A DNA stretch of 64,000 nt from Escherichia coli (GTDB lineage Bacteria; Pseudomonadota; Gammaproteobacteria; Enterobacterales; Enterobacteriaceae). Location: the NCBI RefSeq assembly GCF_003019035.1, contig NZ_CP027447.1; one strand, given 5' to 3'. The translations under genes and the position numbers were made by a program. The notes beneath the pieces were generated by a model. It had not been told where the DNA came from, searched no databases, and worked only from the letters and a program-made list of their open reading frames with translations. Of this stretch, positions 5,102-10,004 are shown piece after piece (position 1 is the first letter of the stretch; every line of letters starts with the position of its first letter).

Positions 5102-6097
5102 GTGACCGTGAGAGCACTACTGACCCCTGAAATTGCCCCGCGTATGGGGATCGTATTGTTCAGACCAGGTTCAGAGCTGATGCCCCTGTTTATGCAGGGG
5201 CGTGTCCTGCTGGAGCCTGAGCCGGAACGTTATTCATCTTTCGCCAGTGGTGCCGTTCCGGCGGCATCACAACCGCTGGCGGATGATCCTGCCGTTCGGG
5301 CCGTGTTCCGCAATGAGGCAGTGATCCGTCGTGCTGGTGGCGTGGAATGTCTTGAAAGCTGGTTACTTCGTGAAAAAGGCTGCCAGTGGCCTCATTCCGA
5401 CTGGCACAGCGAGAACATGACCACAATGCGACACGCTCCGGGCGCAATCCGTCTGTGCTGGCACTGCGATAACCAGCTGCGCGATCAGTTCACGGAACGG
5501 CTGGAATCAATGGCAACGGATAACTGTGCCCGCTGGGTGTTGTCTGTTGTGCGTCGGGATCTTGGTTTTGATGACAGTCACGTTGTGACAATGCCGGAAC
5601 TGTGCTGGTGGCTGGTTCGTAATGATCTGGCGGATGCCTTACCGGAAAGCGCAGCCCGTAAGGCACTGAGATTACCGAAGCCTGTTGTGCAGGCGGTCAC
5701 CCGGGAAAGTGACCTTGTACCTTCGGTTCCTGCCACCAGCATTATCCAGGATAAAGCGAAAAAGGTGCTGGCGCTGAAAGTGGATCCGGAGTCGCCGGAG
5801 TCTTTTATGTTACGCCCAAAACGCCGCCGCTGGGTTAATGAAAAGTACACGCGCTGGGTTAAGACACAGCCGTGTGCATGTTGTGGAAAGCCTGCTGATG
5901 ATCCCCACCACCTGATAGGTCACGGTCAGGGTGGAATGGGTACAAAAGCGCATGACCTCTTTGTGTTGCCTTTGTGCAGAAAGCATCACGACGAGCTGCA
6001 TGCGGATACCGTGGCATTTGAAGAGAAGTATGGCTCCCAGCTGGAGCTGATATTTCGTTTTATCGATCGTGCACTGGCAATTGGCGTGCTGGCCTGA
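5102..6097 (+). CDS. Phage protein, DUF968-like (zinc-binding C-terminus)
   Basis: 331 aa; C-terminal CxxC...HH cluster (CACCGKPADDPHHLIGHG ... CRKHHDELH) typical of the lambdoid DUF968 family. Confidence 0.5.
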   Translation: MTVRALLTPEIAPRMGIVLFRPGSELMPLFMQGRVLLEPEPERYSSFASGAVPAASQPLADDPAVRAVFRNEAVIRRAGGVECLESWLLREKGCQWPHSDWHSENMTTMRHAPGAIRLCWHCDNQLRDQFTERLESMATDNCARWVLSVVRRDLGFDDSHVVTMPELCWWLVRNDLADALPESAARKALRLPKPVVQAVTRESDLVPSVPATSIIQDKAKKVLALKVDPESPESFMLRPKRRRWVNEKYTRWVKTQPCACCGKPADDPHHLIGHGQGGMGTKAHDLFVLPLCRKHHDELHADTVAFEEKYGSQLELIFRFIDRALAIGVLA

Positions 6098-6114
6098 TTT
6101 TGTGGAGAAAGTTG

Positions 6115-6456
6115 ATGCGTGATATGTATGAAGTATTGGACCGCTGGGGTGCATGGGCTGCAGCAGATAACAGTGGTGTGGACTGGCAGCCTGTTGCTGC
6201 AGGGTTTAAAGGTTTACTACCTCATGGAAAGAAAACACGCCAACAATGCGATGATGATGAAGGAATCATGATTGACAGCTGTGTTGCGCGATTGCGGAAA
6301 TATAAGCCCGAAGAGTATGAGTTGGTTATTGCTCATTTTGTTATCGGCATCTCACTAAGAACTATTGCAAAGAAGCAGAAGTGTTCTGATGGGACAATAA
6401 GAAAAGAGTTGCAAACAGCTCTTGGTTTTCTGGATGGTGTGCTTTCAATGTTGTAA
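6115..6456 (+). CDS. Late-gene antiterminator Q-like protein
   Basis: ~113 aa; last early gene before the late region; DRWGAW-containing N-terminus resembles small Q-type antiterminators (recalled). Confidence 0.5.
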   Translation: MRDMYEVLDRWGAWAAADNSGVDWQPVAAGFKGLLPHGKKTRQQCDDDEGIMIDSCVARLRKYKPEEYELVIAHFVIGISLRTIAKKQKCSDGTIRKELQTALGFLDGVLSML

Positions 6457-6460
6457 TATT

Positions 6461-6486
6461 AGGGGGAATTACCCCCCTTTTTTTCT
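6461..6486 (+). terminator. Rho-independent terminator after the Q-like gene
   Basis: GGGGG-AATTA-CCCCC hairpin followed by a run of 8 T; overlaps the last codons of the convergent membrane-protein gene. Confidence 0.6.
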
Positions 6487-7017
6487 CTGTTGCTTTAATA
6501 AAATTTTGATATTTTGTCTGATTATGATGAGGCAATGTAATAAAAGAAATACCGTTAGTATTGCAAGCCATACGCAAAATAAGCATGCATATAAATTAGT
6601 TGAAAGTCCAATAGTGAATTGTGCAATTGCTGTTGTGATAGAACATAATATTGATGTATTAATAAATGAGGATAAATTGTCTAAAGGTTTATAAAGTACA
6701 CTATCATTGATTTTGTCAATAGGTATACCAGTGGCAATGCTATAAATTTCCTTATATTCCTGAGTTGCAAAAACCTTATCGCGTAAATTTATTATGACAA
6801 AGGTATGCAGGCTCAATAAAAATGAGCCCACGGAAATAAAACCGGAGAAGAGATAGCCTCGTAAGTTTTTATGATAAAAATCAAAAAAGTTAACACTTAC
6901 TTTAGGTGTGTTTCTGTACAATAGGTAAAGTGCAAGCAATGCCAGGATCGAGAATGCAAGCAGTGTAAGGTACTGATACCTCAATCTTTTATTTATTAGC
7001 CATTCATATAAAGGCAT
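6469..7017 (-). CDS. Small integral membrane protein with four predicted helices, downstream gene of the two-gene moron
   Basis: 182 aa; hydrophobic segments at about residues 16-34, 45-68, 117-137 and 142-165; basic C-terminus (QQRKKGG); translationally coupled to the 308-aa gene. Confidence 0.55.
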   Translation of the reverse strand: MPLYEWLINKRLRYQYLTLLAFSILALLALYLLYRNTPKVSVNFFDFYHKNLRGYLFSGFISVGSFLLSLHTFVIINLRDKVFATQEYKEIYSIATGIPIDKINDSVLYKPLDNLSSFINTSILCSITTAIAQFTIGLSTNLYACLFCVWLAILTVFLLLHCLIIIRQNIKILLKQQRKKGG

Positions 7018-7930
7018 TTTTATTCGTCCCGTTCAGCATTTCTTCTTTTATCATATCAAAAACAGGGTTTGTTGTATAATTATCGTTTGTCAATCCATTG
7101 ACTTTATCGGCAATTATATCGAAATCGTATGTTTCAAAAAAAACAGGGCAGTTCATAAAATCAATGGTTTTTTCTATTCCTGCATGGTTTACTGCAATAA
7201 CCTGTGCTTTAGTAACTCCACTCATAGAATTATAAATATTTGAAAGATTCTGAGATAGTTGTTGCACTTTTGTTCTGTCGCTAGAATTAAAATTCATATC
7301 TATTGTGGTGGTGTTAACAAATTGTTCAAGCGCAGTCATTGGTCCACCTTTAAAATCTATATAATTAAATTTAAAGCTTGTGCTTTTAATCTCTTTGAAT
7401 TGACATAAAACACTCTGAATGTTGTTTTTATTTGTCATAAGGCTGAAAGTCAGTCTTTCTTTGTATTTTTTATTTATTGCAGTTACTTCTTTTTGTTTTG
7501 GTTTATCACCAAGTTTTTTTATTTCTTCTTTATTTTGATTTCTGATAAATTCATTACTTATTGTTTCTAAATGAGAAAAGAGAGTGTTCAGACTGCATGA
7601 ACCGTGGTGATACATATAGAGACCAGAAAGATTAGATTTTTTAATTAAGAAAAAGTTGAAATTAGCAAGTTTGTCACTTCCTTGAAGATCTTCAATTTTA
7701 AGCTGGAATTTACCATCAACAAATTGCGACTTACAGTTCTTTTTTTGGTTTCTGAATGTGACAACTAATCCATAATAGAAATCATTCACATCCGAAATGA
7801 GAATTTTACGAGTATAGTCTGTGCGACTGTGTTCTCTGTTTGATGCGTTGATAAAAGCATTCATTACGTCAACGGTATTAATATTTTTGTTATTGTTATT
7901 TATTGTAAATCCTATGCTTCTAACTTTCAT
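7004..7930 (-). CDS. Hypothetical protein, upstream gene of a two-gene moron (candidate sensor/effector partner)
   Basis: 308 aa, Asn/Lys-rich and AT-rich coding sequence; its stop overlaps the start of the downstream membrane-protein gene by 14 nt; no recognisable catalytic motif. Confidence 0.55.
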   Translation of the reverse strand: MKVRSIGFTINNNNKNINTVDVMNAFINASNREHSRTDYTRKILISDVNDFYYGLVVTFRNQKKNCKSQFVDGKFQLKIEDLQGSDKLANFNFFLIKKSNLSGLYMYHHGSCSLNTLFSHLETISNEFIRNQNKEEIKKLGDKPKQKEVTAINKKYKERLTFSLMTNKNNIQSVLCQFKEIKSTSFKFNYIDFKGGPMTALEQFVNTTTIDMNFNSSDRTKVQQLSQNLSNIYNSMSGVTKAQVIAVNHAGIEKTIDFMNCPVFFETYDFDIIADKVNGLTNDNYTTNPVFDMIKEEMLNGTNKNAFI

Positions 7931-8049
7931 GTGTATTCCAGGACCGACTAAAGATAGCGAGAATGGGGACGCATAGTTTATAAAAATCCTAACGCGTACG
8001 CAAAAAGTATTATATCGTGTTAAGAGTGGTTACTTCGCCACACAACTTA

Positions 8050-8074
8050 AACCCGCCGCTGAGCGGTTTTTTTG
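8050..8074 (+). terminator. Rho-independent terminator (tR'-like) at the start of the late region
   Basis: GC-rich hairpin (CCGC-TGA-GCGG, extended by AAAC/GTTT) followed by 7 T; an AT-rich promoter-like stretch (TATTATAT) lies ~40 bp upstream. Confidence 0.5.
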
Positions 8075-8194
8075 TACCTGTAAACCTTGTGCAGTACAGT
8101 AAACACGCTGGTGGTCGTGAATACTGGCTTTTTATCTTGCTGGCTTTTTAGACAAGAGTTATTGGTATGTCATGTTAACCAGAAGGGAAAAGAC

Positions 8195-8398
8195 ATGCTA
8201 AAACAGCAAGATATGACAGAAACCGCCGCCGCAGTCCTTCATTTCTTACCTGCTGACAAGTGGGTAACGCCACGCATGATGACGAGAACTACCGGAGTAA
8301 GCGAAGCCCGGTGCCAGTTAATACTGACTCAGTTAGTTCTGGCGGGTCTGGCGAAGGATAACGGCGGGTACGGGAATAAATTCAGACGCTGCCAGTAA
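8195..8398 (+). CDS. Small hypothetical protein (possible winged-helix DNA-binding)
   Basis: 67 aa from ATG 8195 with SD AGAAGGGAAAAG; first gene after the tR'-like terminator. Confidence 0.4.
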   Translation: MLKQQDMTETAAAVLHFLPADKWVTPRMMTRTTGVSEARCQLILTQLVLAGLAKDNGGYGNKFRRCQ

Positions 8399-8548
8399 TG
8401 GCGGTTTCCTGCTGTGAAAATGGGCGGCTGGTGGGTGTTGGTAGCACCTGCCAGCCATTCGCTCATGCTTACTGGTCACAAGCGAACCACGGCCCACTGC
8501 TTTAGCGCAAAAGCAGAGTGAGCCTACCAGAGTTACGCTTACTGATCC

Positions 8549-9601
8549 ATGAAAAATACTGTAAAAATAAACAGTGTTGATTTAATCAACGCTGATTGCC
8601 TGCATTTTATTCAGTCCCTGCCTGATGATTCCATTGACCTGATTGTTACCGATCCGCCTTACTTCAAGGTGAAACCTAACGGTTGGGACAATCAGTGGAA
8701 AGGGGACGAAGATTACCTTAAGTGGCTGGACCACTGTCTGGCCCAGTTCTGGCGGGTGTTAAAACCTGCCGGAAGCCTTTACCTGTTCTGTGGGCATCGC
8801 CTGGCATCTGATATTGAGATCATGATGCGTGAACGTTTCAACGTGCTTAACCATATCATCTGGGCGAAGCCGTCCGGACGTTGGAATGGGTGTAATAAAG
8901 AAAGTCTGCGCGCATATTTTCCTGCCACAGAGCGCGTTCTGTTTGCTGAACATTACCAGGGGCCATATCGCGGCAAAAGTGACGGCTATGCGGCAAAAGA
9001 AAGGGAACTCAAACAGCACATAATGGCACCGCTGATATCGTATTTCAGGGATGCTCGTGCCGAACTGGGTATAACGGCAAAACAAATTGCCGAAGCCACA
9101 GGTAAGAAAAATATGGTTTCCCACTGGTTTGGTGCCAGTCAGTGGCAGTTGCCGAATGAGGCTGACTATCGGAAGTTACAGGCACTGTTTTCCCGTATAG
9201 CGGCAGAGAAGTTTCAGGAACAACAACTGGAACAACCACACCACCAGCTGGTGGCATCTTATGATTCACTGAATCGCAAATATTCTGAATTGCTGGATGA
9301 GTTTAAATCTCTCCGGCGCTATTTCTCCGTATCAGTCTCCGTGCCTTATACCGATGTCTGGACGCATAAGCCCGTTCAGTTCTACCCGGGTAAACATCCG
9401 TGCGAGAAACCGGCGGATATGCTCCGGCAAATAATCAATGCCAGTAGTCGACCTGGTGATCTGGTTGCTGATTTCTTTATGGGATCCGGTTCCACAATAA
9501 AAGCAGCAATGGCGCTGGGGCGTCGGGCGTTAGGTGTTGAACTTGAGTCAGAGCGGTTTAATCAGACGGTGAAAGAGGTAAGTGAACTGGTGGGGAAATA
9601 A
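8549..9601 (+). CDS. DNA methyltransferase (N6-adenine/N4-cytosine, beta-class)
   Basis: 350 aa; catalytic DPPY motif (IVTDPPYF) near the N-terminus and AdoMet-binding FxGxG (DFFMGSGST) near the C-terminus. Confidence 0.85.
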   Translation: MKNTVKINSVDLINADCLHFIQSLPDDSIDLIVTDPPYFKVKPNGWDNQWKGDEDYLKWLDHCLAQFWRVLKPAGSLYLFCGHRLASDIEIMMRERFNVLNHIIWAKPSGRWNGCNKESLRAYFPATERVLFAEHYQGPYRGKSDGYAAKERELKQHIMAPLISYFRDARAELGITAKQIAEATGKKNMVSHWFGASQWQLPNEADYRKLQALFSRIAAEKFQEQQLEQPHHQLVASYDSLNRKYSELLDEFKSLRRYFSVSVSVPYTDVWTHKPVQFYPGKHPCEKPADMLRQIINASSRPGDLVADFFMGSGSTIKAAMALGRRALGVELESERFNQTVKEVSELVGK

Positions 9602-9677
9602 TTCTGGTGGCCACGTTGCGTGGCCTTTTTATTTCCAACACAGCACCCGCAAATATCGCGAGGTGAGAGATGACGAA

Positions 9678-10004
9678 ATGCCTCATAACCCAAATACCTG
9701 GCTGGACTTGGTCCAGAGCTGGTGGCGTGGAGACACACCGCTGGGTGCAGTGATTATGTCGATCGTTATGGCTGGTTTGCGCATCGCCTATTTTGGCGGT
9801 GGTGGTGGCTGGAAGCGAAAAACGCTCGAGATTTTGCTATGTGGCGCTCTGACGCTGACCTTTGCATCCGCTCTTGAGTATGTCGGATGGCCTAAATCAC
9901 TATCTGTTGCCATTGGTGGTGGGGTGGGGCTGATCGGTGTCGATGCTATTCGTGGGGCTGCAATGCGAGTAATCGGTAACAAGTTTGGTGGCTCTAAGGA
10001 GTAA
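9678..10004 (+). CDS. Holin
   Basis: 108 aa; hydrophobic helices with a glycine-rich central segment and charged C-terminus; directly precedes the endolysin. Confidence 0.7.
   Translation: MPHNPNTWLDLVQSWWRGDTPLGAVIMSIVMAGLRIAYFGGGGGWKRKTLEILLCGALTLTFASALEYVGWPKSLSVAIGGGVGLIGVDAIRGAAMRVIGNKFGGSKE

Follow-up and report, generated by a model that had tools for sequence, protein, structure and literature searches.

The window analysed here, a stretch of 64,000 nucleotides of Escherichia coli DNA (contig NZ_CP027447.1 of assembly GCF_003019035.1), carries a phage late control region composed of a gene for the antiterminator Q, a cassette of foreign genes, and a late promoter and terminator, pR' and tR'. 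The segment at 7990-8074 is very probably the late pR'-tR' unit that is matched to the Q gene at 6115-6456, from which it is parted by a foreign two-gene cassette on the minus strand. A previous reading of the bare sequence had proposed that a pR'-tR' unit was displaced by about 1.5 kb from Q through the inserted cassette, and this proposal is borne out by the boundaries of exchangeable modules, by relatives in which the unit abuts Q, by an upstream element that tracks the class of Q, by a conserved -10 element, by a transcription start in the homologous block of DLP12 and by the layout of phage 21. In its mode of action, the feature corresponds to the textbook Q/pR'/tR' switch. It falls into the DLP12/434/PA-2 subgroup of the Q21 family, and for this subgroup the databases already show an accessory gene on the minus strand that lies between Q and the promoter of the lysis genes. 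The source phage is essentially one that has been sequenced already; positions 5800-8600 are 99.8% identical to Escherichia virus mEp460_4F5. Signed positions in the following are counted from the predicted start of pR', and the features are listed in Table 1.

The extent of the module becomes apparent from phages carrying other types of Q or other inserts. In phages with a lambda-family Q (SfV, 720R4 and Ayreon/mEp460; Q of 250 amino acids, PF03589), BLAST matches to the window extend to 6109, which is the start of Q, and set in again precisely at 8050, where the second of two hairpins found in the region has its foot. In phages with a Q of the same family as that of the window and with other inserts (PhiR40_1, cdtI and Stx2a_1447), homology returns 50 to 70 bp earlier, at 7979-7999. 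The boundaries at 6109 and 8050 thus define 6110-8049 as one exchangeable unit, with Q on its left and a Q-type-specific stretch of 70 bp on its right. A lambda-style pR' occupies the interval of roughly 100 bp that separates Q from the hairpin in SfV; it consists of TTGCAT, a 17-bp spacer and TAAGAT, followed by AACGATGGG, the lambda pause element. Since this lambda-like pR' directly precedes the same terminator, 8050-8074 is a tR' common to two types of Q/pR' module. The module from Q to the promoter is swapped as a whole, and the terminator and the late leader stay common.

The block at 7990-8074 is found in about 80 phage records, among them 434, PA-2 and DLP12, and always lies 3' of a short Q of the PF06530 family; in DLP12, it is located between nmpC and essD. 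The addition of 240 loci from IMG/VR led to a survey of 225 loci with such a Q, about 210 of which have the block downstream. In about 29 of these 210 loci, Q is directly followed by the block (distance of -2 to 16 nt); in PhiR5_1 and Stx2_14040, it begins approximately 10-40 nt past the Q stop codon without any insert, and it also abuts Q in locus L072. In the remaining loci, the block is 595 to 3751 bp away from Q, separated by inserts that fall into 41 families, have a GC content of 0.30-0.46 and carry their main open reading frames (ORFs) on the minus strand in all but one or two families. Given this recurrence of the block, in some loci right beside Q, the arrangement in the window can be read as an insertion into a canonical Q-pR'-tR' unit. 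In the window itself, pR' does not lie immediately next to Q, the distance from the Q stop codon (6456) to the block (~7990) being 1.53 kb. Separation of Q from its late switch is common among relatives such as DLP12, and the window is an ordinary, though tidy, example of it.

The Q protein is a full-length member of PF06530 (Pfam search, E = 2e-45), which makes it a member of one of the three Q families, and it belongs to PHROG 79, annotated as 'anti-termination protein Q-like'. It is 90% identical to the Q proteins of Stx2a_1447 and Kp4865-4, and it weakly matches the Q21 structures 6p18 and 6jnx (E = 3e-4). The short Q proteins form three classes, which are split by the C-terminal, putatively DNA-binding half of the protein, and each class is accompanied by its own sequence at -31 to -24: GCGTACGC in class A, which includes the window (75 loci, 41 distinct Q sequences), GCGG[T/C]CCGC in class B (67 loci, 30 distinct Q sequences) and TTTACGTACGTAAA in class C, which includes DLP12 and 434 (82 loci, two distinct Q sequences). 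Among about 210 loci, which carry more than 70 distinct Q sequences, none departs from this pairing, whereas within a class there is free variation in the inserts, in the bases immediately upstream of the core and at the central positions of the -10 hexamer. The GCGTACGC palindrome occurs once in the window and is situated in the upstream half of the promoter, as are the Q-binding elements of phage 21, annotated nearby at -27 to -12, and of lambda. It had been suggested that a Q-utilisation site be sought around 7980-8050, and the class-tracking palindrome provides a candidate for it, though not a proven site; it behaves as would be expected of a Q-binding element.

In accordance with a promoter function of the block, the hexamer at 8013-8018 is conserved in the manner of a -10 element. 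Over about 210 loci, 15 variants of this hexamer occur, of which 14 have T at the first position and all have A at the second and T at the sixth, whereas the middle is free; judged by this comparison of sequences, the TAnnnT pattern is the hallmark of -10 elements. The adjacent GTTAAGAGTGGTTAC is nearly invariant across all three Q classes and occurs only once in the window. For DLP12, a Cappable-seq table lists a plus-strand start at position 576452 of U00096.2 (PMC4782308). In the window, TATCGT lies 7 nt upstream of the position that matches this DLP12 start. Transfer to NC_000913.3, for which we take the coordinates to be shifted by 777 bp, places the start at 577229, which is the A of GTTAAG-A-GTGG in the DLP12 block and is equivalent to window position 8025; with the same shift, a second listed start, 576081, also falls 7 nt past a TATTAT hexamer. 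Another hexamer of the window, TATTAT at 8008-8013, was considered as the -10 element and dropped, because it lacks conservation in class C and is at odds with the mapped start. The sites for CRP that were annotated in the 1986 record of PA-2 overlap the block; however, the TCACA half-site is absent from the window. In the Cappable-seq table, DLP12 also has a much stronger plus-strand start with a relative read score of 90 at NC_000913.3 576858 (position 6859 of locus L011), about 370 nt upstream and beside the start codon of nmpC, and transcripts from this start would likewise run into the tR'-like terminator.

Two hairpins followed by T-runs had been pointed out at 6461..6486 and 8050..8074, and both are detected by the terminator scan and by RNAfold. 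The first has the sequence AGGGGG-AATTAC-CCCCCT at 6461-6478, is followed by TTTTTTTCTCT and begins 5 nt past the Q stop codon; with six pairs, five of them G-C, in the consensus scan and -11.4 kcal/mol in RNAfold, it is a good intrinsic terminator on the plus strand. The view of this site as a strong terminator directly after Q is therefore correct, but its assignment to the late switch is not. Homology to Stx2a_1447, which has the same Q, stops at the Q stop codon (BLAST), which means that the hairpin travels with the cassette. Furthermore, a plus-strand terminator is present at the junction between Q and insert in only 9 of 72 distinct junctions, and the stop codon of the 182-aa ORF of the cassette falls within the hairpin; taken together, these findings mark the hairpin as the edge of the cassette. 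It likely blocks unmodified polymerases leaving Q, thereby preventing antisense transcription of the cassette. The second hairpin pairs CCGC with GCGG and has flanking AAA/UUU pairs; the terminator scan places it at 8055-8067. Its z-score against shuffled sequences in RNAfold is not significant; such scores are uninformative for both of these short hairpins. It is judged to be more than chance, since a hairpin with a T-run is kept at +24 to +58 in 44 of 48 distinct homologous leaders, which contain 26 different hairpin sequences. SfV, 720R4 and Ayreon have a homologue of this hairpin behind their lambda-type pR', and the records of SfV and Ayreon label it as a terminator. The late control region thus has an intrinsic terminator shortly after the start and before the late genes, with the lysis genes downstream. 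A search of 5800-8700 against Rfam gave no family. A hairpin within the leader, GUGGU...GCCAC at +3 to +18, was discarded, as its variants, judged by eye, give no consistent support.

From these elements, the following mechanism can be proposed. RNA polymerase would start at about 8025 from the -10 hexamer, with no recognisable -35 element, and without Q it would stop at the small hairpin and T-run at 8053-8073; a start at 8025 and a stop within the T-run predict an RNA of 47-50 nt, similar in length to the leader of phage 21. Once Q has accumulated, it would bind the class-specific GC palindrome and the A-tract, which lie in the promoter's upstream half (-31 to -18), and load onto the early elongation complex, presumably with a pause. 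The modified polymerase would then read through tR' and the terminator at 9609, thereby transcribing the genes for the methylase, holin, endolysin, spanin and structural proteins.

Several observations weigh against this interpretation. The AT-rich, promoter-like stretch described upstream of the second hairpin does exist, 7975-8018 being AT-rich around the GC palindrome, but a simple two-hexamer scan with the sigma-70 consensus calls no promoter there and finds no site at 7950-8050, where the -35 position reads AACGCG/TAACGC. Since there is no match to a -35 element, the scan misses the promoter, and pR' rests instead on the comparison of relatives and on the DLP12 start site. The sole start-site evidence comes from DLP12, a class C member with a -35-like TTTACG that the window does not have, and this start gives a weak signal only, its relative read score being 1.7. 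The stem of tR' in the window has only 4-5 pairs with about -7 kcal/mol and is among the weaker variants; moreover, Term-seq tables of E. coli K-12 list no 3' end near essD, although short or unstable RNAs may escape such detection. The link between Q class and element could stem partly from physical linkage rather than binding specificity; however, the invariant block common to all classes would offer points for recombination, yet no chimera was seen. The palindrome is also unlike the direct-repeat binding site of Q21. A loading site of the Q21 type, in which two Q protomers occupy a pair of direct 8-bp repeats (Yin et al. 2019), was not found, the conserved core here being a palindrome (GCGTACGC, GCGGTCCGC or ACGTACGT) with variable bases upstream. 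Finally, the initial transcribed region contains no convincing sigma-dependent pause element. Neither of the two candidates, AAGAGT (8022-8027; -3 to +3) and TACTTC (+7 to +12), fits in sequence and position together. The better one is AAGAGT, which lies inside the invariant block and resembles TAAGCT of phage 21 and AACGAT-GGG-TTAATTCGC of lambda, but -3 to +3 of the mapped start is an unusual position. The GGTTACTTCGC that follows AAGAGT resembles GGGTTAATTCGC of lambda; the similarity to the lambda-like GGTTAATTCGC has a p-value of about 0.01 against shuffled sequences and is equalled by 1.5% of genome windows, and is therefore only suggestive and statistically unconvincing.

The block has also to be considered as something other than a late promoter. 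It might mainly be the control region of a leftward promoter of the cassette, with the palindrome serving as its -35 element or operator, in which case expression of the late genes would stem from polymerases reading through from the early rightward operon or from a different promoter. The minus strand indeed offers a good -35 hexamer, TTGCGT (8003->7998), which is drawn from the right half of the palindrome and is followed by a 17-bp spacer, the -10 hexamer TAAACT (7980->7975) and, 45 nt further on, the ATG at 7930; of 60 distinct variants with an insert, 44 have a -10-like hexamer 16-18 bp from this -35, and in Q classes A and B no -35 element is present in the rightward promoter. However, the block and its palindrome are kept in the approximately 29 loci without a cassette, where the leftward -10 hexamer is present in none of six distinct variants, and the block follows the class of Q and not the family of the cassette. 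Together with the rightward start mapped in DLP12 and a terminator directly downstream, which makes sense for rightward transcription only, this renders the explanation unlikely. Control of the leftward promoter and a function as pR' are compatible with each other, and one site may serve both promoters.

Two further explanations dissociate the block from Q in other ways. If the promoter were located inside the 3' end of Q, the hairpin at 6461-6486 would be the real tR' and the hairpin at 8055 an incidental attenuator. The former hairpin is the stronger one and begins 5 nt past Q, where tR' regions usually begin, but a scan of 6300-6460 reveals no promoter-like site on the plus strand, the hairpin belongs to the cassette according to the end of same-Q homology, and terminators of this kind are rare at such junctions. 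Late transcripts would furthermore be forced through 1.5 kb of the cassette in antisense orientation, and cassette-free relatives carry a block of the 8019 type beside Q rather than the 6461 hairpin; we regard this explanation as highly improbable. It is scarcely more plausible that the block is a constitutive, Q-independent promoter with a leader attenuator or small RNA for the 67-aa ORF and the methylase, which would owe its link with Q to inherited adjacency. The segment with these two genes is indeed flanked by the terminators at 8055 and 9609 and has no counterpart in SfII, 434 or DLP12, and terminated pR' RNAs such as StxS can act as small RNAs (PMC7547250). Nevertheless, phages without the methylase keep the block before their lysis genes, which assigns it to the late operon, the pairing with the Q class is exceptionless despite 41 unrelated insert families between Q and block, and there is no match to Rfam.

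Among the closest known systems is that of phage 21 (structures 6P18 and 6P1A; annotation OL657228), which serves as the structural model of this Q family and in which a PF06530 Q is likewise followed by late lysis genes and a Q-specific element, for which the window has a candidate, is situated in the upstream half of the promoter. The annotation of phage 21 comprises a -35 element, a Q-binding element in the spacer (-27 to -12), the start, a pause element at +2 and a terminator that ends at +50. In contrast to the window, the binding element of phage 21 consists of the direct 8-bp repeats ATTGAGCA and AATGAGCA at -27 to -12 instead of a GC palindrome at -31 to -24, the -35 element is a TTGACA that has no counterpart in the window, and the distance from Q to pR' is 7 bp rather than 1.5 kb. 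The Q protein of phage 21 has 162 amino acids as compared to 113 here, and the two share about 27% identity over approximately 80 residues. The quuD-nmpC-essD region of DLP12, as well as 434 and PA-2, has a Q of the same short subfamily, the invariant block and terminator before the lysis genes, and an accessory gene that separates Q from the block and is encoded on the minus strand. DLP12 differs from the window in its class C Q (45% identity), in its palindrome TTTACGTACGTAAA, which also supplies the -35 element, in its insert, which is a porin gene and not a two-gene cassette, and by the absence of the segment with the 67-aa ORF and the methylase. The Q protein of DLP12 reportedly controls the essD lysis cassette.

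The lambda system follows the same logic (Q, pR', 6S RNA and tR') with an unrelated Q family, PF03589; in lambda, Q and pR' are adjacent, the binding site and the pause element (AACGAT) are defined, and the terminated RNA has a length of 194 nt. SfV, mEp460 and Ayreon carry a module of the lambda type and share the terminator and the late leader with the window from 8050 onwards. For the Q933-pR'-StxS-tR' region of 933W and Sakai Sp5, a constitutive pR' with early termination in lysogens has been described (PMC7547250). The leader in this region comprises 258 nt and is processed to a 74-nt small RNA that binds Hfq (PMC7547250), whereas the leader in the window would be about 50 nt long. The Q and block of the window type are located upstream of stx1 or stx2 in the Shiga toxin (Stx) phages Stx1_14040 (L014), Stx2_14040 (L017) and Stx2a_1447 (L007), and some of these phages have a minus-strand cassette between Q and the block. 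A comparison of pR' regions by Zhang (2018) used the 933W type as its only reference, so that the block lies outside its coverage, and a text search of the literature with the block sequence and with 'QDLP12' gave no match.

The cassette (6457-7980, ~1.53 kb) consists of two minus-strand ORFs, and the GC content of 6460-7980 is 0.28-0.34, compared to about 0.5-0.58 in the flanks. Among 5426 complete genomes of E. coli, 218 carry this cassette. Neither protein has a match in Pfam, PADLOC or NCBIfam. The 308-aa protein has been placed in a PHROG whose function is unknown, and its homologues, which are enterobacterial proteins, carry no annotation; for this larger of the two cassette proteins, structure prediction points to a RexA-like fold. 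By sequence, it does not belong to the RexA/RexB family (hhalign probability of 0.7% against lambda RexA). The 182-aa protein, which also lacks a PHROG family, has 3-4 hydrophobic segments according to a hydropathy scan, and its gene overlaps the end of the first gene; we propose that it might take a RexB-like role. As in lambda RexA/RexB, a soluble protein of ~300 amino acids with a predicted RexA/RdgC-like fold precedes a small, probably multi-pass membrane protein; the order of the genes agrees, and so does their location in a temperate lambdoid phage outside the late operon. On the other hand, there is no sequence similarity to the lambda pair, the cassette is located between Q and pR' and not next to cI, and the membrane protein has 182 amino acids, whereas RexB has 144. 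Judged by predicted fold, gene order and setting, the pair looks like a RexA/RexB-type exclusion pair.

The gap that separates Q from the block constitutes a hot spot for insertions. Many of its inserts pair a protein of 300-400 amino acids with a small membrane protein, and porins (nmpC/lc) and a lipoprotein are also found among them; a search of the literature yielded no account of a hot spot between Q and pR'. The distribution of the leftward -10-like hexamer suggests that the inserts may be driven by a divergent promoter overlapping the Q-site region, which we offer as a lead and not as a result. As the leftward -35 hexamer lies in the palindrome, binding of Q might affect expression of the cassette too. 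[quoted passage not shown]

Downstream of tR', the late operon begins with a 67-aa ORF and a DNA methyltransferase, beyond which the ORF list and Pfam identify a holin, an endolysin and a spanin. The two genes before the holin are bracketed by the terminators at 8055 and 9609, and this segment is missing from SfII, 434 and DLP12, in which the block directly precedes the holin gene; the segment could thus represent a further insertion of accessory genes, located within the late leader. In the terminator scan, the strong plus-strand terminator at 9609-9635 has seven pairs, six of them G-C, followed by TTTTTATTTC, and its counterparts are annotated as terminators in SfV and Ayreon. As listed, the holin ORF codes for 140 amino acids (9582-10004), has a GTG start that overlaps the end of the methylase gene and spans this terminator. 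The Pfam holin match covers residues 33-134 only, and the true start of the holin is therefore probably farther downstream.

Table 1. Features of the late control region and its surroundings (window positions; aa, amino acids)
Feature	Position	Strand	Remark
DUF968/HNH protein	5102-6097		upstream of Q gene
Q antiterminator gene, 113 aa	6115..6456	+	short (QuuD-like) branch of the Q21 family
Intrinsic terminator, Q-proximal edge of cassette	6461..6486	+	overlaps stop codon of 182-aa ORF
Cassette gene 2, 182-aa membrane protein	6469..7017	-	ORF list, hydropathy scan
Cassette gene 1, 308-aa soluble protein	7004..7930	-	RexA/RdgC-like predicted fold
Predicted leftward cassette promoter	7975..8003	-	read from sequence
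Candidate Q-binding element: palindrome GCGTACGC (-31..-24) and A-tract	7994..8006	.	
pR' -10 hexamer TATCGT	8013..8018	+	
Near-invariant block GTTAAGAGTGGTTAC (-6..+9)	8019..8033	+	
Predicted pR' start, A in GTTAAG-A-GTGG	8025	+	
tR': hairpin 8053-8066 and seven T at 8067-8073	8050..8074	+	
67-aa ORF	8195-8398	+	first gene 3' of tR'; PHROG 331
DNA methyltransferase	8549-9601	+	PF01555; PADLOC 'Type II methyltransferase'
Second late-operon terminator	9609..9635	+	between methylase and holin

These results leave the understanding of Q antitermination unchanged; they place the late promoter for a widespread group of temperate phages of E. coli, Shigella and Klebsiella, which includes phages converting to Stx1 and Stx2 production. 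Since the block lies upstream of stx in such phages, predictions of toxin and lysis control should examine the block and not only the DNA adjacent to Q, and surveys that seek a 933W-type pR' beside Q would miss the block promoter. The pairing of Q classes and palindromes provides three natural specificity classes, which could be swapped to define DNA recognition by short Q proteins. The insertion hot spot lends itself to a practical search for defence genes carried by prophages and, if Q indeed shuts off the cassettes, this would silence, for instance, a Rex-like abortive-infection pair that is harmful to the lytic growth of the phage itself.

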